From positions 31,477-95,476 of the IMG/VR virus record IMGVR_UViG_3300035698_011578: 64,000 nucleotides of DNA; one strand, given 5' to 3'. Each line of letters begins with the position of its first letter. Positions within the stretch are counted from its first letter, which is position 1. This document shows, piece by piece, positions 3,131 to 44,908 of the stretch. The DNA comes from a virus. A program made the translations under genes and the position numbers. The notes beneath the pieces were generated by a model that was given only the letters and a program-made list of their open reading frames with translations, was not told the DNA's origin and ran no database searches.

Positions 3131-4336
3131 ATGAATCTTAAATTATCCGAAGACTTTAAATTATTACTCACCAGAATAAAAAATAATAAAGTAGCTAATA
3201 AACTACTTAATTCAGAATTCGATACTAAAAAAATCAATTATAATTATATTGGTTTAGGAGATACTAATAAGTTAGTAAGTTTTACACCCGAAACTAAAGT
3301 AGAGAAAATACTGGAAGAACTACCGATGTATTTTACAATAAACGCAGTTAGAAATCTAACATATAACAATTCTAATAATGCAATATTTGAGGCATTGGGA
3401 TATGATAAAGATGCAAATGAATATTGGTACCCACAAGATCCAGCAACTGATAGAGGAACTATCTTGAGGGAAACTGTTAGTAAGTCAAGTGGCAGAACTT
3501 ATGTTTTATATAAATGTAATCGCACTGGTAGATTAGCAGTAATTAATAAAGAAGCTATAATCGAAAAACAAGAAGATGATTCCTTCTTATTTGAAACTAA
3601 CCGAAATTCTATTAAGGTTGGTCGTTTAGCATCACATATGCTAACCAGTATAGATTTTGATTATACAACAAAAGACATCGAAGATTTTGTTAATTTATAT
3701 AAAGCTTCTTATGACTTCATGGGAAATAAGAGTTTACAATTTGAGATAGTATCAGGTATGGATATTGCATGGTGGTACAATCATGAAAGATACCAATCCG
3801 GTGGTGGTGTGTTAAACAACTCTTGTATGAGTAGCAGACCAGATAGTACATTTGAACTATACACTGAAAATTCTTGCTGTAAGATGATTATCTTATATGC
3901 AGATGATGGTGAAATCGTTGGTGATTTATATAAAGCGATTAGAATTAAAGGTCGTGCCCTTTTATGGGATGTTAAATATAAAGGTGACTCTATTAAATTC
4001 ATGGATAGAGTTTATACTACTAACGATTCTGATGTCGAGCTCTTCAAGGAATATGCAAAGACAGAAGGATGGTGGTTCAAAGAAGAGCAAAGTATGTACC
4101 CTAATGCGAGAGTTACTGATGGTGAAACTATAACTGATGATAGATTCGAGGTTGTATTAGAAAAACCAGATTTTAAATACCATCCATATATGGACACTAT
4201 GTGCCATTGGGTAAATGGTTGCTTAACAAATAGTTTTGATAAGAAACACACAAAGACATTCAGATGTACTAACGGATCACATTGTATTTGTGAAGATGGT
4301 AGAGAAATTAGATATGCTGATATTTCTAATGTTTAA
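3131..4336 (+). CDS. Conserved phage protein (NSCM/GRALLW/FMDRVY/PYMDT family), paralog of 48768..50603
   Basis: Same ordered motifs in both ORFs; TATATTTG promoter upstream near 3098. Confidence 0.75.
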   Translation: MNLKLSEDFKLLLTRIKNNKVANKLLNSEFDTKKINYNYIGLGDTNKLVSFTPETKVEKILEELPMYFTINAVRNLTYNNSNNAIFEALGYDKDANEYWYPQDPATDRGTILRETVSKSSGRTYVLYKCNRTGRLAVINKEAIIEKQEDDSFLFETNRNSIKVGRLASHMLTSIDFDYTTKDIEDFVNLYKASYDFMGNKSLQFEIVSGMDIAWWYNHERYQSGGGVLNNSCMSSRPDSTFELYTENSCCKMIILYADDGEIVGDLYKAIRIKGRALLWDVKYKGDSIKFMDRVYTTNDSDVELFKEYAKTEGWWFKEEQSMYPNARVTDGETITDDRFEVVLEKPDFKYHPYMDTMCHWVNGCLTNSFDKKHTKTFRCTNGSHCICEDGREIRYADISNV

Positions 4337-14346: not shown

Positions 14347-15327
14347 TTATCCAAATTTATTTACACTTTTCTTCATAATTTTAAAATAATCTGATATAGT
14401 TTTTTCATAACTTTCCCTCTCTTTGTAATTCTCAACAATATAATTGTAGTTGTCTTTCAATTCTAATACACCGTTAATAACATTATCTATCCTAATACTA
14501 GGAACATTTTTCAAGAAACACATCCTATTAAAATCATTAATCATCACACCATTACCATTAACCAATTCAGGTAATCCACCAGATGATGTGTATAGAATAG
14601 GTAACTTACATTTAACTGCTTGACAAGTTACTTTAGAACCAGCATCTCTAAAAAATGGTGAGATGAATGCATCACACATACTAATAAGATTACACATCTC
14701 TGTCCTATCATCTATATAACCATATTTGATTATATTTTCAGGTAGTTCTTCAATATCACACTCACCTATCAGATAAAATAAATCATTGTCAAATATTTTT
14801 GACATGGCTATAATAGTTGATAAACGTTTACCCTCTCTCTCCCAATTACTACAAGAACTAATCCATTTAAACACCTGATTAGATTCCTTTTTATCCGGAT
14901 TATAATCTTCAGAATTATTTAATATGACAATATCATTATCATATTCTACATCATAAAGTTCTTTAAGTGTGTTCTTTGAATAATTTGATATAAATATAAC
15001 AAAATCTGATTGATAACCGGCATCTATATGTAACTTATTTTTATAATCGAATTCTTTTCTCCAATAAATACCATCCATTCTTTTAACTTTGGGTATATTA
15101 TTCAATTCAGACCACTCTAATACTTCTTTAGAATAAAATGTGTTTGTTATAATAATATCTGCTAATTTGTAATCAGATACACGATTAAACCCATAATTAC
15201 CTGCATACCTACACAAGTCGTGCATTATATCATTTTCTTTAGGCCCGAAAGATTTGACACTATGAAGTGTATTACTTACTCTATTATTTGAGCAATCATA
15301 ATAATTTTTAAGCATTTCTCTTTTCAT
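14347..15327 (-). CDS. Glycosyltransferase (GT-B, family 4-like)
   Basis: DAFISPFFRDAGSKVTCQAV..LPILYTSSGGLPELV C-terminal GT4 pattern. Confidence 0.75.
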   Translation of the reverse strand: MKREMLKNYYDCSNNRVSNTLHSVKSFGPKENDIMHDLCRYAGNYGFNRVSDYKLADIIITNTFYSKEVLEWSELNNIPKVKRMDGIYWRKEFDYKNKLHIDAGYQSDFVIFISNYSKNTLKELYDVEYDNDIVILNNSEDYNPDKKESNQVFKWISSCSNWEREGKRLSTIIAMSKIFDNDLFYLIGECDIEELPENIIKYGYIDDRTEMCNLISMCDAFISPFFRDAGSKVTCQAVKCKLPILYTSSGGLPELVNGNGVMINDFNRMCFLKNVPSIRIDNVINGVLELKDNYNYIVENYKERESYEKTISDYFKIMKKSVNKFG

Positions 15328-31002: not shown

Positions 31003-31671
31003 TTAATATATTTTTTTAGAAACTTCTATACTTGCTTTTATATCATTTTCACAATATTCCGCTATCTTTCCTGTCTTATTTTCCCAGTAAGCTAAATGTA
31101 CTTCAGAACCATTCATATCCACCTTTGGTGAGTCTATATCTAATTCATATGCTACTTCATCAAATGAGAATGCCCATGCGAATTTTTGTTTCCAATCCTC
31201 GGATAAATCTGTTATTCTAGCATCCCATGGCTTCTTATCATACATATAAATAATATTAGCAGGTTCTATTCCATATTTATGTAACTTGTGTAACACCCAA
31301 GGGATATCAAAGTAAAGGATTCTAAATCCACATAAGTTAAAGTTCTTTTTCTCTATCTTCTTTAATAGGTTATTGAAAGATTCAACAATAAGTTTTTCAT
31401 CATCACCATAAAATGATCGTATTTGACTAACTTCACTGTTATCAATATAACCAAAAGCTATACATACGATTTTACCAAATGTTGAAACAATTCCCGCATT
31501 ATCTAAATATGCCTCATCTATTGATGAATATTTATCTACCCAATTTAATTTATTATATTTCTTCTCGAATAATTTAGCACCTCTTTCATCATTTAGTTTA
31601 AATCTATTATAATCTGGGTGTGCACCGGCAGTCTCTATATCAAAATGGAATAAGTCGTTAGTCATCATCAT
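31003..31671 (-). CDS. 3'-5' exonuclease (PolB-like DEDD)
   Basis: FDIET, FDIPW, YCENDI. Confidence 0.85.
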   Translation of the reverse strand: MMMTNDLFHFDIETAGAHPDYNRFKLNDERGAKLFEKKYNKLNWVDKYSSIDEAYLDNAGIVSTFGKIVCIAFGYIDNSEVSQIRSFYGDDEKLIVESFNNLLKKIEKKNFNLCGFRILYFDIPWVLHKLHKYGIEPANIIYMYDKKPWDARITDLSEDWKQKFAWAFSFDEVAYELDIDSPKVDMNGSEVHLAYWENKTGKIAEYCENDIKASIEVSKKIY

Positions 31672-34113: not shown

Positions 34114-34419
34114 ATGAAAGATTTAAGACACATCAAAAGTTTCAATGAAGGAACAGAAAATCAATATTTACTTATAGTACACTATGAAGGTGGTGATGAG
34201 ATACATTTTAATGTTATCGATTATTCATTATATCCTCAAATTAGTAAAATTATAAATGATGGATTAAACACACAAGAAGCAGTGAATGATATGTTAACTA
34301 TTATATATGATAATACATTAGAACAATTAATGTGCCAAACTTATGTTTTAGAGGATTATACTAAAATCGATAAATATAATATCGTAAAATGTATACATCT
34401 TATGGAATTAGGTAGTTAA
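34114..34419 (+). CDS. Hypothetical protein with MKDLRHIKSFNE motif
   Basis: Probable ATG at 34114. Confidence 0.65.
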   Translation: MKDLRHIKSFNEGTENQYLLIVHYEGGDEIHFNVIDYSLYPQISKIINDGLNTQEAVNDMLTIIYDNTLEQLMCQTYVLEDYTKIDKYNIVKCIHLMELGS

Positions 34420-34516
34420 AGTATTTTTTATTACAAAAATTTTATTACCTTTGTGGTAAAGAGTTAAGAATGTGCTTAAAATGAACAAAATTCAAACTTT
34501 TTTAAAAATAAACGAT

Positions 34517-34575
34517 AATAAATTTGGATAATTAAAACTTTTACCGTATATTTGTATAAGATAATGAGAAAATAA
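34517..34575 (+). promoter_or_regulatory. Bacteroidota-type promoter block; identical 59-bp copy at 43217..43275
   Basis: TTTG-N20-TATATTTG; followed in both copies by TTTTAATATATA and a leader ORF. Confidence 0.8.
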
Positions 34576-34610
34576 CAAAAACAGAGAATAAACTTTTAAT
34601 ATATAAAACA

Positions 34611-34721
34611 ATGAAAAACAGAAATCTAAATATGAACACGAATTTAACACTCAACGTAGTGAATATTACTTTATGTAATATTAGACGAACTGAGGGTTGT
34701 GATCAATTTAGACTTTATTGA
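34611..34721 (+). CDS. Leader peptide MKNRNLNMNTNLTLNVVNITLCNIRRTEGCDQFRLY
   Basis: Residues 3-27 use only N,R,L,M,T,V,I,C; CTGAGGGTT (34690-34698) pairs with terminator 5' arm. Confidence 0.85.
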   Translation: MKNRNLNMNTNLTLNVVNITLCNIRRTEGCDQFRLY

Positions 34722-34748
34722 AAGAAATAAAAAGACTAAACATAAATC

Positions 34749-34784
34749 AAACCCTCAGAAATAAAAAATTCTGAGGGTTTTTTT
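34749..34784 (+). terminator. Attenuator terminator of 15-tRNA operon
   Basis: AAACCCTCAGAA-ataaaaaa-TTCTGAGGGTTT followed by TTTT. Confidence 0.9.
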
Positions 34785-34799
34785 ATGTAATGAAAAATT

Positions 34800-34872
34800 G
34801 GATTAGTAGCTCAGTTGGTAGAGCAATTGTTTGTTAAACAAAAGGTCGCTGGATCGTGCCCAGCCTAGTCCG
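34800..34872 (+). tRNA. tRNA-Asn(GTT)
   Basis: Loop TT-GTT-AA; acceptor GGATTAG/CTAGTCC. Confidence 0.8.
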
Positions 34873-34880
34873 CAACAAAA

Positions 34881-34892
34881 TGTTCTTTGACG
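34881..34892 (+). promoter_or_regulatory. boxA-like antitermination site
   Basis: TGTTCTTTGACG resembles rrn boxA TGCTCTTTAACA. Confidence 0.55.
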
Positions 34893-34916
34893 TATTGGGA
34901 TATAAAAATTAAAAAC

Positions 34917-35003
34917 GATTGTGTTGCCGTAGTTGGTCGAACGGTCCAGACTGTTAATCTGGTGAGTTAAACTCCACCGTAGGTTCGAATCCTACCACAA
35001 TCG
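34917..35003 (+). tRNA. tRNA-Asn(GTT), long variable arm
   Basis: CCAGA-CT-GTT-AA-TCTGG. Confidence 0.85.
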
Positions 35004-35066
35004 CTTAATAAACTTCGTTAATATGAAGTTGTGTAGTTTTAATATATAAAAGAAAATATTAAAATT

Positions 35067-35765
35067 ATGAGTGAATTAAGAAATAAAATAATAGAATTAA
35101 GAATTAATGGTAAAAAATATACAGAAATAAGTGAGATATTAGGATGTTCTAAATCAACGATAAGTTATCACTGTAAACGAAATAAAAAAATAATTTATAT
35201 CGAGAATGTTGATATTGAATCACAGACAGAAATAGTAGAATATCGAGAAATTGGTTTAAGATTAATAGAAATATATGAAAAATTAGAAAAAAGAATAACT
35301 AAAGAAAATATTAAAATAATATGTAGAAAAAATGGATTATCTTATTTAGATAGATTAAATGAAGAAGATATAAATAAGATTCGTGAGAAATATAAAGAAA
35401 TAGGTAAACTTAGAAAAGTTGCCAGAATATTAGGATATAGTTTTAGCACAGTTAAAAAAAATGTTATTGATTTAATTGAAGATTTTAATAAAAATAAGAA
35501 AAATATAAGTAATTCAGAATCTGTTATAAATTGGAGAAAAAGAGTTAAAATAAAATTAGTAGAATATAAGGGAGGGAAATGTGAAAGATGTGGTTATAAT
35601 AAGTACGTGGAAGTCTTAGAATTCCACCATAGAGATGAGTATGAAAAAGATTTTACAATATCAGGTAAATCTTGGTCATATGAAAGATTAAAAAATGAAG
35701 TTGATAAATGCATTATGCTATGTTCAAATTGTCATAAAGAAATGCATATAGAGAATAAAAATTAA
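35067..35765 (+). CDS. HNH homing endonuclease with HTH repeats, inside tRNA array
   Basis: CERCGY...LEFHH...LCSNCHKEMH. Confidence 0.85.
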   Translation: MSELRNKIIELRINGKKYTEISEILGCSKSTISYHCKRNKKIIYIENVDIESQTEIVEYREIGLRLIEIYEKLEKRITKENIKIICRKNGLSYLDRLNEEDINKIREKYKEIGKLRKVARILGYSFSTVKKNVIDLIEDFNKNKKNISNSESVINWRKRVKIKLVEYKGGKCERCGYNKYVEVLEFHHRDEYEKDFTISGKSWSYERLKNEVDKCIMLCSNCHKEMHIENKN

Positions 35766-35771
35766 TAAAAT

Positions 35772-35856
35772 ACCGGGGTGTCGTAATTGGTAGCCGAGAC
35801 AGACTTAAACTCTGTTGATCCTTGTGGTCGTGAGGGTTCAAATCCCTTCCCCGGTA
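35772..35856 (+). tRNA. tRNA-Leu(TAA)
   Basis: ACAGA-CT-TAA-AC-TCTGT, long variable arm. Confidence 0.85.
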
Positions 35857-35864
35857 CAATACAA

Positions 35865-35936
35865 GGTTCCTTCGTCCAACGGATAGGACTTCAGTCTTCT
35901 AAACTGATAATATGGGTTCGAGTCCCGTAGGAATCT
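35865..35936 (+). tRNA. tRNA-Arg(TCT)
   Basis: TCAGT-CT-TCT-AA-ACTGA. Confidence 0.85.
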
Positions 35937-35949
35937 CAAAATATAAAAT

Positions 35950-36030
35950 ACCTCTGTGGCGAAATGGTTCACGCAGCATGTTTAGAACTTGTCTCCGAGA
36001 GGACTGTCGGTTCGACTCCGACCAGAGGTA
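35950..36030 (+). tRNA. tRNA-Leu(TAG)
   Basis: Loop TT-TAG-AA, weak anticodon stem, long variable arm. Confidence 0.7.
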
Positions 36031-36038
36031 CAAAAAAT

Positions 36039-36121
36039 AGGACTATGGTGTAATTGGCAACATCCCACTGTTACATGGTGGAGACGTGAAGTAAATCTCG
36101 GTTCGAGTCCGAGTAGTCCTA
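36039..36121 (+). tRNA. tRNA-Val(TAC), enlarged variable region
   Basis: CCACT-GT-TAC-AT-GGTGG. Confidence 0.8.
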
Positions 36122-36126
36122 CAAAA

Positions 36127-36203
36127 CGGTGTGTATACCCTCCGGCTGATACCCGGTTGAAAGGTTAATTGGTTACACGTAGGTTCAATTCCTACCTCAC
36201 CGA
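36127..36203 (+). tRNA. Atypical D-armless tRNA-Ile(GAT)-like RNA
   Basis: CCGG-CT-GAT-AC-CCGG after an 8-nt linker; same layout as 14025..14101. Confidence 0.7.
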
Positions 36204-36212
36204 CAAAAACAC

Positions 36213-36284
36213 GTACCTGTGACCGAGTGATTTAGGTAGGCGGCTGCAACCCGTCTTACGGGGGTTTGAATCCCTCCAGGTACT
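36213..36284 (+). tRNA. tRNA-Cys(GCA)
   Basis: GGCGG-CT-GCA-AC-CCGTC, U73. Confidence 0.85.
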
Positions 36285-36292
36285 CTAAATTT

Positions 36293-36364
36293 TGGAGATT
36301 AGCTCAGTGGAAGAGTAATTCCTTGACGTGGAATAGGTCAACAGTTCAATTCTGTTATCTCCAA
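36293..36364 (+). tRNA. tRNA-Val(GAC)
   Basis: ATTCC-TT-GAC-GT-GGAAT. Confidence 0.85.
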
Positions 36365-36370
36365 CAAAAT

Positions 36371-36453
36371 GCCTTCTTCGCATAGTGGCTATTGCACCTG
36401 ACTTTAATCAGGCGAGGTAAAACTCATCGTGGGTCCGAGTCCCACAGAAGGCT
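36371..36453 (+). tRNA. tRNA-Thr-like gene with 6-nt anticodon loop
   Basis: CCTGA-CTTTAA-TCAGG; equals CTTGTAA (Thr TGT) minus G; GCC-starting acceptor. Confidence 0.6.
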
Positions 36454-36466
36454 CAAAATTTAATAT

Positions 36467-36535
36467 TGCGAGAGATTCGGCAATCGTCATCGGCTCATAT
36501 CCTTTGACAAGTGGGGTCGGCACCCATTCTCGCAA
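36467..36535 (+). tRNA. Degenerate tRNA-Met(CAT)-like gene
   Basis: Acceptor TGCGAGA/TCTCGCA, loop CT-CAT-AT, reduced D arm. Confidence 0.55.
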
Positions 36536-36542
36536 CAACAAT

Positions 36543-36615
36543 GGCGCTTAAACATTTACTGGATGATGTCTAGTCTTGTAAACTAGGTAAGTGGGATCGT
36601 TACCCTCAAGTGCCT
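36543..36615 (+). tRNA. tRNA-Thr(TGT)
   Basis: CTAGT-CT-TGT-AA-ACTAG. Confidence 0.8.
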
Positions 36616-36622
36616 CAAAAAT

Positions 36623-36693
36623 GCTTTCATAATTCAATGGCAGAATACTAGCTTGGTATGTTAGATATAGCAGTTCGAGTCTGCTTGAAAGCT
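36623..36693 (+). tRNA. tRNA-Thr(GGT)
   Basis: CTAGC-TT-GGT-AT-GTTAG. Confidence 0.85.
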
Positions 36694-36700
36694 CAAAAAT

Positions 36701-36772
36701 GTCGCAGAAGTTCAATGGATGAATAAGGCTCTTCTAAAGCTTTGGTTGTGGGTTCGAGTCCCACCTGTGACT
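36701..36772 (+). tRNA. tRNA-Arg(TCT)
   Basis: AGGCT-CT-TCT-AA-AGCTT. Confidence 0.8.
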
Positions 36773-36780
36773 CTAGATTT

Positions 36781-36862
36781 GCATTGATGGTGGAATTGGT
36801 AGACACGCTGGCCTAAGAAGTCAGTGCCGAGAGGTGTAAGAGTTCGAATCTCTTTCTTTGCA
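36781..36862 (+). tRNA. tRNA-Leu(AAG)
   Basis: CTGGC-CT-AAG-AA-GTCAG, Leu-type D loop and long variable arm. Confidence 0.8.
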
Positions 36863-37249
36863 CAAAAAATAAAAAATTCATCAAATTTATGAAACAAAGC
36901 AGTATGTATTGGATATATACTGTATAAATCATTTGGTTTTGTTAGTTTCGAGTCTTATTTTAGGCTTCCAAATTGTTTAACAGCAATAAAGAAATTCGCA
37001 ATTCAAAAATAAAAATAAATAAAGATGATGAAAAAATGGTCTCTATCCGAGATTTGTGAATATATTAATTTATATAACCCAATCGTAATTTTACTTAGAA
37101 TTCCTATAGATCTTTTTAAATCTAAAAAGATAACTCATCATCATAACTTAATTTTAAACTTTAAGCATGAATATAGTCATGCTATATAAATAATTTTGGT
37201 AATGTTTTTAACTGAGCATTTCAAAAATAAAAATAAAAAATTAATTATT

Positions 37250-43216: not shown

Positions 43217-43275
43217 AATAAATTTGGATAATTAAAACTTTTACCGTATATTTGTATAAGATAATGAGAAAATAA
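43217..43275 (+). promoter_or_regulatory. Bacteroidota-type promoter block, identical to 34517..34575
   Basis: 59-bp exact match. Confidence 0.8.
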
Positions 43276-43309: not shown

Positions 43310-43408
43310 ATGAAAAAAGTAAATGTAAATATAACAGTAGTAAATCAACCGCAAGTTGATCAAGATCCGATTTTAATCAGGACTAGCCGTGCTTTGCAAA
43401 TAACTTAA
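43310..43408 (+). CDS. Leader peptide MKKVNVNITVVNQPQVDQDPILIRTSRALQIT
   Basis: CAA CCG CAA GTT GAT CAA GAT CCG block matches downstream Gln/Pro/Asp tRNAs. Confidence 0.8.
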   Translation: MKKVNVNITVVNQPQVDQDPILIRTSRALQIT

Positions 43409-43430
43409 GTTAAAAAGTTAAAAACAAATA

Positions 43431-43462
43431 AAACCCAGTTAGTTAATTCTAACTGGGTTTTT
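43431..43462 (+). terminator. Attenuator terminator of Asp/Gln/Pro tRNA operon
   Basis: AAACCCAGTTAG-ttaatt-CTAACTGGGTTTTT. Confidence 0.85.
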
Positions 43463-43528
43463 CTATATTGTAACAATAAATGTCAGTTTTTGGTGTTCGG
43501 ATTTCAATATATAAAAATAAAAGAGAAT

Positions 43529-44215
43529 ATGAGAAATAGATATGAGAAAGAATATTTTACTGAAGTAATAAAAAACTCCCAAAACTTATCAGATGTTTGT
43601 AGAAATATAGGATTAAAGAGTTTTTATGGTAATAGACAAACAGTTAAGAAAAATATTGAAAAATATAAACTTGATATAAGTCATTTTAGATACCACAAAA
43701 GTGGTGGTAGAATAAAAATACCAACAAGAGATATATTAGTTGAAAATTCTACTTATAGCAGCACTACCTGTATTAAAGAAAGGTTATATGAAGAGGGCTA
43801 TAAAGAAAGAAAGTGTGAATTATGTGGACAAGGAGAAAATTGGAATAATATGAAGATTAGTTTAATTTTAGATCACATAAATGGGATAAATAATGATAAT
43901 AGAATAGAAAATCTTAGAATAGTTTGCCCAAATTGTAATGCTGGTTTAGATACTCATGGTGGTAAAAATATATCAAAAAACAGTAAGTATAATTATTCAG
44001 AAGATTTAGTTAATAAGAAGTATTATTGTGATTGTGGTAATGAAATGTGGAAAAATTCGAAGTGTTGTAAAGTATGTTTTGATATAAAACAAAGAAGAGT
44101 TAAAAGACCAGATAAAGAAATATTATTAAAAGATGTAGAAAAATTAGGCTATACTGGAACAGGAAGAAAATATAATGTTAGTGATAATACTATTAGAAAA
44201 TGGTTAAAAAAGTAG
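43529..44215 (+). CDS. HNH homing endonuclease
   Basis: CELCG...LDHINGINNDNRIENLRIVCPNCN. Confidence 0.9.
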   Translation: MRNRYEKEYFTEVIKNSQNLSDVCRNIGLKSFYGNRQTVKKNIEKYKLDISHFRYHKSGGRIKIPTRDILVENSTYSSTTCIKERLYEEGYKERKCELCGQGENWNNMKISLILDHINGINNDNRIENLRIVCPNCNAGLDTHGGKNISKNSKYNYSEDLVNKKYYCDCGNEMWKNSKCCKVCFDIKQRRVKRPDKEILLKDVEKLGYTGTGRKYNVSDNTIRKWLKK

Positions 44216-44422: not shown

Positions 44423-44493
44423 GGCCTATTGGGGTATGGGTATCCTTTCACACTATCACTGTGAAGAACCGAGTTCGAGTCTCGGATAGGCCG
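44423..44493 (+). tRNA. tRNA-Asp(ATC)
   Basis: TCACA-CT-ATC-AC-TGTGA, G73. Confidence 0.75.
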
Positions 44494-44504
44494 CAAAAAT
44501 ATAA

Positions 44505-44769: not shown

Positions 44770-44852
44770 TGAGAGTTGGTAGAGTGGTCAATTACGGTAG
44801 GTTTTGAACCTACTTTCGAAAGATGTCGTGGGTTCGAATCACACACTCTCAT
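44770..44852 (+). tRNA. tRNA-Gln(TTG), long variable arm
   Basis: GTAGG-TT-TTG-AA-CCTAC. Confidence 0.8.
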
Positions 44853-44908
44853 CAAAGATTTTCCCAATTTTTAAACTTAATATATAATAGAAACAAAGTT
44901 ATTATAAA

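Follow-up and report, generated by a model that had tools for sequence, protein, structure and literature searches.

The 64,000-nt stretch of phage DNA analyzed here (the window; positions 31,477 to 95,476 of the virus record IMGVR_UViG_3300035698_011578, with coordinates below given in the window) belongs to an AT-rich contig of 95,476 bp (28.7% GC). It encodes, on the plus strand, a cluster of tRNA genes that is preceded by two promoter-like elements, a 36-codon open reading frame (ORF), hereafter the leader, and an intrinsic terminator (Table 1). The terminator at 34749 is the sole terminator-like site on this strand within 34300-37100, and the first tRNA gene (34800) begins 12 nt past its T run, so that there is no room for a separate promoter between the two. 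The cluster consists of two tRNA-Asn genes, an inserted ORF and 13 further tRNA or tRNA-like genes, in the order Leu(TAA), Arg(TCT), Leu(TAG), Val(TAC), an Ile-like gene with a GAT loop, Cys(GCA), Val(GAC), an unassigned gene with a 6-nt anticodon loop, a CAT-like gene, Thr(TGT), Thr(GGT), Arg(TCT) and Leu(AAG). The first-pass annotation of this sequence had described the arrangement as an attenuator of a 15-tRNA operon, with an eight-amino-acid leader that contains all and only the isotypes of the array.

Table 1. Coordinates of the leader, its predicted RNA elements, the genes behind it and the related units of phage phi4:1
Feature	Position	Strand	Details
Host-type promoter-like element	34523..34554	+	TTTG (34523-34526), 20-nt spacer, TATATTTG (34547-34554); within the 46-nt block
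Phage promoter-like motif T(T)AATATATA	34596..34605	+	ends 6 nt ahead of the leader ATG
Leader ORF	34611..34721	+	ATG at 34611, 36 codons, TGA at 34719-34721
Sensor codons 3-25	34617..34685	+	residues limited to N, R, L, M, T, V, I, C
Region 1, protector helix 5' strand	34621..34657	+	codons 4-16; pairs with 34685-34716 (codons 25-36)
Tip hairpin	34662..34682	+	perfect 8 bp, AATATTAC / GTAATATT, -5.8 kcal/mol; codons 18-24 (N-I-T-L-C-N-I)
Region 2, antiterminator 5' strand	34690..34703	+	codons 27-31; doubles as protector 3' strand
Region 3	34746..34758	+	common to antiterminator (with region 2) and terminator (with region 4)
Intrinsic terminator	34749..34787	+	12-bp stem (34749-34780), 8-nt loop, T7; -17.5 kcal/mol
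tRNA-Asn(GTT) x2	34800..35004	+	ARAGORN, Rfam; second copy (34917-35004) with long variable arm
HNH ORF inserted in array	35067-35765	+	232 codons, HNH-like C-terminus; own promoter-like motif at 35039
13 tRNA or tRNA-like genes	35772..36863	+	ARAGORN/Rfam plus scanning for atypical genes
Ile-like tRNA gene	36127-36202	+	loop CTGATAC (reads GAT); atypical; missed by ARAGORN and Rfam
Unassigned cloverleaf gene	36371-36454	+	6-nt anticodon loop CTTTAA, long variable arm
Met-like tRNA gene	~36467-36537	+	CAT; atypical; missed by ARAGORN and Rfam
phi4:1 units	~2667-2795, 3627-3770, 5373-5526 of L075		L075 is KT962245.1 84399-96497

Leader composition and alternative RNA structures

Residues 3-27 of the leader form a run of 25 drawn solely from Asn, Arg, Leu, Met, Thr, Val, Ile and Cys, exactly as the first-pass annotation had read it. 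The frequency of this eight-residue set is 0.424 by the codon usage of the 70 long ORFs of the contig, and the set accounts for 0.521 of sense codons by base composition. The chance calculation that had been proposed alongside the claim gives 5e-10 (codon usage) or 8.5e-8 (base composition) for 25 such codons in a fixed window, with 5e-5 to 8e-3 runs of this length expected in the six frames of the whole contig. No longer run of this kind exists in the six frames of the 95-kb contig, where the next one has 15 residues and those inside real genes do not exceed 13; within codons 2-24, 22 of the 23 residues belong to the set (P = 9e-8). All eight residue types fall within codons 3-22; the sensor includes eight codons for Asn, two each for Ile and Val, and one each for Cys and Met. 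The restricted composition extends to codon 27 in this leader and stops at codon 25 in its relatives.

This composition matches the array. Apart from CGA at codon 26, every codon from 3 to 27 (24 of 25) can be read by an anticodon of the array, each of the three Leu and two Thr anticodons has cognate codons there, and the codon counts per amino acid track the tRNA gene counts (Spearman 0.78, n = 8). Within 34800-36863, ARAGORN identifies 13 genes (Asn x2, Leu x3, Arg x2, Val x2, Cys, Thr x2 and one '???'), and 12 of the array's tRNA genes are confirmed by Rfam. The "all and only" claim is therefore solid for six isotypes, namely Asn x2, Leu x3, Arg x2, Val x2, Cys and Thr x2. For Ile and Met it is plausible: the corresponding genes of the window are atypical tRNA-like sequences, and relatives carry canonical Ile(GAT), Ile(TAT) and Met(CAT) genes in their homologous arrays. 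The third Thr gene that had been counted (36371-36454) is unproven or wrong. It has a 6-nt anticodon loop and a 5' half that is 89% identical to the tRNA-Gly(TCC) of Cellulophaga phage phi4:1, and thus cannot be called Thr; this gene could be a decayed or non-standard decoder.

The same annotation had pointed out that CTGAGGGTT, at codons 27-30, is identical to part of the terminator 3' arm, and this was confirmed: the sequence occurs within the ORF at 34690-34698 and again at 34771-34779, with its reverse complement at 34750-34758 in the terminator 5' arm. The window contains 4 copies of CTGAGGGTT vs 0.25 expected. Three alternative helices can be drawn from these segments. The ORF alone folds as one long imperfect hairpin, the protector (-22.9 kcal/mol); the antiterminator, 34690-34703 paired with 34746-34758, comprises 13 bp (-20.3 kcal/mol for the segment); and the third helix is the terminator itself. 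None of 2000 shuffles of the window ORF reaches the observed antiterminator pairing of -18.3 kcal/mol. In the predicted folding of the nascent RNA, the protector persists until region 3 appears, the antiterminator prevails up to 34762-34770, and the complete RNA combines protector and terminator. As modeled, protector, antiterminator and terminator make up the classical 1:2 / 2:3 / 3:4 arrangement with shared strands, and the tip hairpin is a possible RNA polymerase pause hairpin.

The position of a stalled ribosome was represented in folding by a 30-nt footprint that was forced to remain single-stranded. Under this constraint, the antiterminator is fully available for A-site codons 2-22 and partly for 23 and 24, and its gain over the protector state is greatest (-13 to -16 kcal/mol) for stalls at codons 8-16. 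Stalls at codons 25-34 make the antiterminator impossible because the ribosome covers region 2. The boundary of antiterminator availability coincides with the end of the restricted composition.

Homologous leaders and parallel units

The first homologue of the leader was found with blastn in LR745206.1, an uncultured phage of 634,780 bp, and exact-pattern scans with a 21-24-nt anchor within the ORF added five viral contigs (152-508 kb) and many metagenome contigs. After removal of duplicates and chance matches, 25 distinct sequences were retained (24 homologues and the window). The search pattern required the tip hairpin, and the invariance of that hairpin accordingly carries no weight. The leader pattern had no match in genome contigs, and a search for relatives with the leader-peptide alignment recovered only three loci that were already known. 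For positions 34300-35100 of the window itself, ten sequencing datasets were listed, none of them of RNA; eight came from salt lakes, one from a hydrothermal vent, and one was a marine metagenome.

All 25 sequences share the same basic layout. Each has the ATG and an open frame of 36-43 codons, with indels in the ORF that are multiples of three, and a T-run terminator 21-32 nt past the stop. In every case the terminator 5' arm has a pairing partner within the ORF at codons 25-33 (-16 to -26 kcal/mol), of a stability comparable to that of the terminators (-16 to -23 kcal/mol), and the whole-ORF protector hairpin forms in each sequence. The MAFFT alignment misplaces the variant arms of two members, L003 and L063, so pairing was computed for each sequence separately and with a named structure. 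These two have divergent terminator arms, with CCCAGAUUC and CCCGAUUC in place of CCCUCAG, and their ORF segments are changed to match: their own pairing reaches -17.2 and -18.4 kcal/mol, compared with -7 to -10 for cross pairing with the other class. For the protector helix, the structure of one member is paired in 87% of cells vs 33-46% with slid partners, and there are 6 compensatory pairs. Covariation support for this helix is modest, because diversity is low and RNAalifold run on the ORF alignment recovered the tip hairpin alone.

The restriction on residues is conserved independently of their order. Although the stretch before the tip hairpin occurs in 15 residue orders among the 25 sequences, 349 of the 355 residues of the sensor halves come from the eight-residue set; in the 3' halves of the same ORFs, between 6/12 and 12/13 residues lie outside it. 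Substitutions at aligned sensor positions remain in the set in 14 cases and leave it in 4, when single-base neighbors predict 44% inside (P = 0.004); those in the 3' arm divide 12 to 16. Lys is the most frequent residue of the genome (9.5%), and its codons are a single base change from those of Asn, yet it occurs 2 times among the 355 sensor residues; there are few or no Phe, Tyr, Ser, Asp and Glu residues. The leader of the window differs from that of relative L001 by six synonymous changes within codons 6-20 (CTA/TTA, AAT/AAC, TTA/CTA, AAC/AAT, GTA/GTG and ACT/ACG), and the nonsynonymous changes between the two stay inside the set. Since set membership is kept while residue order and synonymous codons vary, the constraint falls on the decoding tRNAs rather than on the peptide, which fits a sensor and is predicted neither by a functional peptide nor by an untranslated RNA. 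Among homologues with enough sequence, the arrays behind the leaders include Asn, Arg, Leu, Val, Ile and Thr, often also Cys and Met, in variable order and copy number.

Three more leader units are present in the window, and their leaders are enriched in the isotypes of their own arrays. One leader contains Ile-ATA, Ala and Gly codons ahead of Ile(TAT)-like, Ala and Gly genes, another contains YYYEE ahead of Tyr and Glu-like genes, and that of unit 4 contains QPQVDQDP ahead of Asp, Gln and Pro genes. The ORF of unit 4 (43310-43408; unit 43310-43470) pairs weakly with its own terminator 5' arm (-3.9 kcal/mol in a simple duplex test), so the antiterminator of this unit may lie elsewhere or be absent. 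Related combinations are found in other sequences: L002 has a PQDQDQP leader before Gln/Asp/Pro genes, and in L038 a Gly-containing leader precedes two Gly genes.

Particularly informative is the cultured Cellulophaga phage phi4:1 (KT962245.1), in which three units of promoter, leader ORF and terminator are located inside the tRNA region. The respective arrays consist of Pro/Glu/Gln/His/Leu/Arg, Ala/Lys/Ile/Gly/Met/Asp/Thr/Val/Arg and Tyr/Ser/Asn/Trp/Phe/Cys-like genes. The fractions of leader residues that match the leader's own array are 0.69, 0.80 and 0.67 (P = 4e-4, 8e-3 and 7e-5 against background), compared with 0-0.31 for the other arrays. Like the window leader, the phi4:1 units combine a promoter and a mini-ORF written in the isotypes of the array with a terminator, the 3' arm of which is mimicked by part of the ORF, and with tRNA genes behind it; they differ from it in having unrelated sequences and other isotype partitions. 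Judged from these sequences, the differently partitioned isotypes with matching leaders amount to a natural swap experiment. One of the phi4:1 leaders overlaps an annotated hypothetical gene, Phi4113_075.

The terminator stems of different leader families start with AAACCC and end with GGGTTT. This was seen at 34749 and 43433 in the window, at 7315 in L002, in L038 and at ~3735 in L075, and suggests common descent or a shared requirement.

Promoter-like elements, unusual tRNA genes and inserted ORFs

Two kinds of promoter-like elements precede the leader. The upstream one, TTTG separated by 20 nt from TATATTTG, appears to resemble the Bacteroidota -33/-7 promoter consensus. It is contained in a 46-nt block (from 34523) that has an identical copy at 43223 on the plus strand and a copy with 5 mismatches at 14355 on the minus strand; every copy of the block precedes a short leader ORF, a terminator and tRNA genes. 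No match to the block was obtained in an exact-pattern search of viral contigs. The second element, TTTTAATATATA, is present in ~40 copies on both strands of the contig, 5-30 nt 5' of ORF starts that include those of long structural ORFs, and often just 5-8 nt before the ATG (for example at 34596, 35039, 43295 and 43504 and, on the minus strand, 21732 and 41872). The spacing between this motif and the ATG of the leader equals that found at genuine phage genes (long structural genes). The motif is likely to be a phage-specific promoter that yields near-leaderless mRNAs; a Shine-Dalgarno sequence is not evident at the leader ORF. The same motif also directly precedes a tRNA-Met gene (21710-21638, minus strand) that has neither leader nor terminator.

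Several tRNA genes of this phage have unusual features. The two genes with Ile loops, at 36127-36202 (plus strand, GAT) and 14090-14018 (minus strand, TAT), are recognized by neither ARAGORN nor Rfam and share a layout in which the acceptor and T arms are normal, an ordinary D arm is lacking and the anticodon arm is followed by a D-loop-like element. Long variable arms are found on isotypes that normally have short ones (Asn, Val and Gln, at 34917-35004, 36039-36122 and 44770-44853), and the long Asn gene is 89% identical to a phi4:1 gene annotated as 'tRNA-Pseudo'. The T loop of the Thr(TGT) gene (36543-36616) has the unusual sequence ATCGTTA, which relatives conserve, and a tRNA-Asp gene with the anticodon ATC (44423-44494) is located beside two with GTC, A34 being unusual for Asp. 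The array of L003 includes a similarly odd gene at the position that matches 36371-36454.

At the DNA level, the inserted ORF matches genes annotated as HNH endonucleases in other phages. It separates the two Asn genes from the rest of the array and is missing from the homologous arrays of L001, L002 and L003, which run uninterrupted, so it is probably a mobile insertion. A second inserted ORF is found at 43490-44215, also behind its own promoter-like motif; both are ~230-240 codons long and are located in or just before tRNA arrays.

A candidate attenuator, its alternatives and known systems

In our assessment, the element is probably a ribosome-mediated (leader-peptide) transcription attenuator that gates the phage tRNA gene cluster. 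Anatomy, statistics, conservation, covariation and parallel units, including those of a cultured phage, support the attenuator interpretation of the first-pass annotation, for which the start, protector, antiterminator and terminator are all present and conserved in sequence. The component parts are mutually exclusive in their pairing, they are conserved and covary, and the leader matches the array; on this basis we infer that the leader is translated, that ribosomes stall on it, in which direction the switch would respond and that it would feed back via the tRNA pool.

Under the proposed mechanism, transcription would begin at the host-type promoter or at the phage promoter just upstream of the leader, and the 36-codon ORF would be translated. 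When the sensor codons are read quickly, the ribosome would reach the stop codon, the two halves of the ORF would re-pair as the protector, the terminator hairpin (34749-34780) would form and transcription would stop 12 nt before the first tRNA gene. Scarcity of charged tRNA for any of Asn, Leu, Thr, Val, Arg, Ile, Met or Cys would instead cause a stall at codons ~3-23, which would keep the protector from re-forming by occupying its 5' half. Segment 34690-34703, now unpaired, could then pair with the terminator 5' arm as the latter is made, so that the terminator would be blocked and the polymerase would enter the tRNA genes. As the array encodes the very tRNAs by which the sensor codons are read, the feedback loop would close on itself, with shortage switching the array on and sufficiency switching it off.

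Several observations weigh against this interpretation or limit it. The stop codon is located 16 nt past region 2, and a ribosome waiting there leaves region 2 uncovered, so that termination would have to rely on re-pairing of the protector or on steric hindrance. Six of the eight amino acids have only 1-4 sensor codons each, and the response to a mild shortage of a single one may therefore be weak; the leader may chiefly sense shortage of Asn, combined shortage or near-complete loss of one tRNA. Thus, the description as an eight-amino-acid leader holds for the composition and for the presence of all eight types within the stall positions that permit the antiterminator, and is to be qualified in that amino acids with one or two codons should sense mild starvation weakly. 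Residues of the set also make up 0.50-0.59 of the other three leaders of the window, which is about background (T, I, N and V in the N-terminal parts), and part of the composition might be generic leader filler; what distinguishes this leader is its purity (22/23 in the set) and not the mere occurrence of set residues. Several atypical genes of the array may be non-functional. The 15-tRNA operon of the first-pass annotation is interrupted after two genes by the HNH gene, and the promoter-like motif at 35039 may drive transcription of the HNH gene together with 13 of the 15 tRNA genes, bypassing the switch. Finally, the set of homologues was anchored on a pattern inside the ORF, which limits its diversity and misses more divergent members.

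Four alternatives have to be weighed against the attenuator. The switch could depend on translation and yet report general translation capacity (ribosome availability, global elongation rate or translation inhibitors) instead of particular tRNAs, in which case common AT-rich codons and RNA pairing constraints would have produced the restricted composition as a by-product. We regard this as unlikely, notwithstanding that set residues dominate the non-specific parts of the other three leaders of the window at approximately background frequency, that most amino acids have just 1-4 sensor codons, that the entire ORF is under pairing constraint and that the sole published regulated tRNA array that was found, the trn operon of Anabaena, responds to general translational stress (PMC8421152). 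Such a by-product does not account for the near absence of Lys, Phe, Tyr, Ser, Asp and Glu from the sensor halves (Lys being the commonest residue of the genome), for substitutions that remain in the set beyond the expectation from the mutational neighborhood, for the unrestricted opposite arm of the same hairpin, or for the different residue sets, each following its own array, in the other leaders of the window and in those of phi4:1. An RNA-only leader with an incidental, untranslated ORF, whether it acts as a constitutive partial terminator, as a processing element or as a switch that responds to a protein or to tRNA binding, appears very unlikely. It would be in keeping with strongly conserved nucleotides that form helices and with the lack of an evident Shine-Dalgarno sequence, and is disfavored by a frame that is open in 25 of 25 sequences against a stop-rich background of 29% GC, with indels in threes; by a constraint on set membership rather than on nucleotides, as seen in the synonymous and within-set changes between the window and L001; by a distance between ATG and promoter motif like that at genuine genes; and by the lack of a match to the T-box or any other Rfam family.

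The remaining two alternatives have even slimmer chances. A small protein gene with its own terminator, encoding a functional or arrest peptide (...NITLCNIRP), with the tRNA genes transcribed by constitutive leak-through, might be suggested by the middle of the peptide, which is invariant in all homologues found. This invariance was a requirement of the search, and the segment forms a perfect RNA hairpin; furthermore, the order of the N-terminal half varies (15 variants), the C-terminal half follows the terminator arms, the window has R-R where relatives have R-P, and the leaders of phi4:1 and the other leaders of the window possess the same architecture without the motif. The arrest peptide NITLCNIRP was dropped as a candidate given that its invariance stems from the search pattern and the RNA hairpin and that the motif is missing in other units. 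That a chance ORF happens to be located beside an ordinary terminator has a negligible probability: AT-rich composition favors some residues of the set and nothing further speaks for it, and the statistics of the run and of the pairing, together with conservation over 25 sequences and covariation, rule it out.

If the attenuator reading is correct, it bears on the question of why and when phages express their own tRNA genes. It would represent the first case in which tRNA genes are described as being controlled by attenuation, with a self-closing feedback loop on the tRNA pool, and this leader would be the most multivalent one known, with eight residue types versus two or three. The same design occurs in a cultured pair, Cellulophaga baltica and phage phi4:1, which makes the model directly testable; leader sequences could predict which phage tRNA genes are co-regulated, and switches of this compact, codon-specific kind could be repurposed to sense tRNA availability. 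More speculatively, and with considerable doubt on our part, the attenuators of this phage and its relatives might serve as surveillance of the tRNA pool, each unit reporting, codon by codon, the loss of any replaceable tRNA. Were this so, degradation of host tRNA during infection, or cutting by anticodon nucleases of the host, would induce the replacement tRNAs of the phage, and the units would constitute a built-in counter-defense sensor, beyond dosage control. Under tRNA loss a single sensor codon would suffice, and eight amino acids could therefore share one leader.

Leader peptides that sense Thr/Ile, Ile/Val/Leu and Val/Leu attenuate the thr, ilvGMEDA and ilvBN operons, respectively, and trp, his, leu and pheA are likewise controlled by leader-peptide attenuators. 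The window leader shares with these classical systems, for which a model is available (PMC1183508), a short, putatively translated ORF that separates the promoter from the regulated genes, codons cognate to the product of the operon, three mutually exclusive helices with the sensor codons on the 5' strand of the protector, and a terminator directly before the first gene. It differs in several respects. Classical attenuators gate biosynthetic enzymes, whereas this leader would gate tRNAs (and the HNH ORF), such that the output feeds back on the sensed molecule. They respond to one to three residue types, whereas there are eight here, most with few codons and without long runs. Their stop codon is located before or within region 2, and here it is 16 nt beyond. 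Moreover, the window leader is phage-borne, has two promoters and shows no sequence or Rfam relationship to classical attenuators: in searches with the leader families of Rfam (Thr_leader, Leu_leader, His_leader, Trp_leader and others) only tRNA matches pass the gathering score, and those obtained at E<=1 are sub-threshold, chance-level matches, such as rnk_leader with 28.9 vs 50 bits.

Among attenuators of the translation apparatus, the pheST (pheM) leader of Escherichia coli controls an aminoacyl-tRNA synthetase operon by leader-peptide attenuation. It resembles the attenuator proposed here in acting on a component of this apparatus and in sensing charged tRNA, and is different in that it controls a synthetase, responds to one amino acid (a Phe run) and is cellular rather than viral. 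T-box riboswitches also make a terminator/antiterminator choice that reports tRNA status to translation-related genes; they bind uncharged tRNA via a specifier codon and the T-box sequence, without translation, whereas the window leader contains a conserved ORF, and a search for T-box features (Stem I, specifier loop, T-box sequence; Rfam model) gave no match even at E<=1.

No published account of leader-peptide attenuation of tRNA genes was found in the literature, and the nearest case is the trn operon of Anabaena sp. PCC 7120, a long tRNA array that is induced under translational stress (PMC8421152). Its repressor TrcR, a ribbon-helix-helix protein, binds direct repeats in the promoter (PMC10272220), and the text describing the operon mentions neither attenuation nor a leader peptide or terminator (PMC8421152). 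The control of the trn operon thus differs from that proposed here in that it is exerted at the promoter, is not codon-specific and is not phage-borne, but the two systems would have in common an accessory tRNA array that is kept low and is switched on when translation is impaired.

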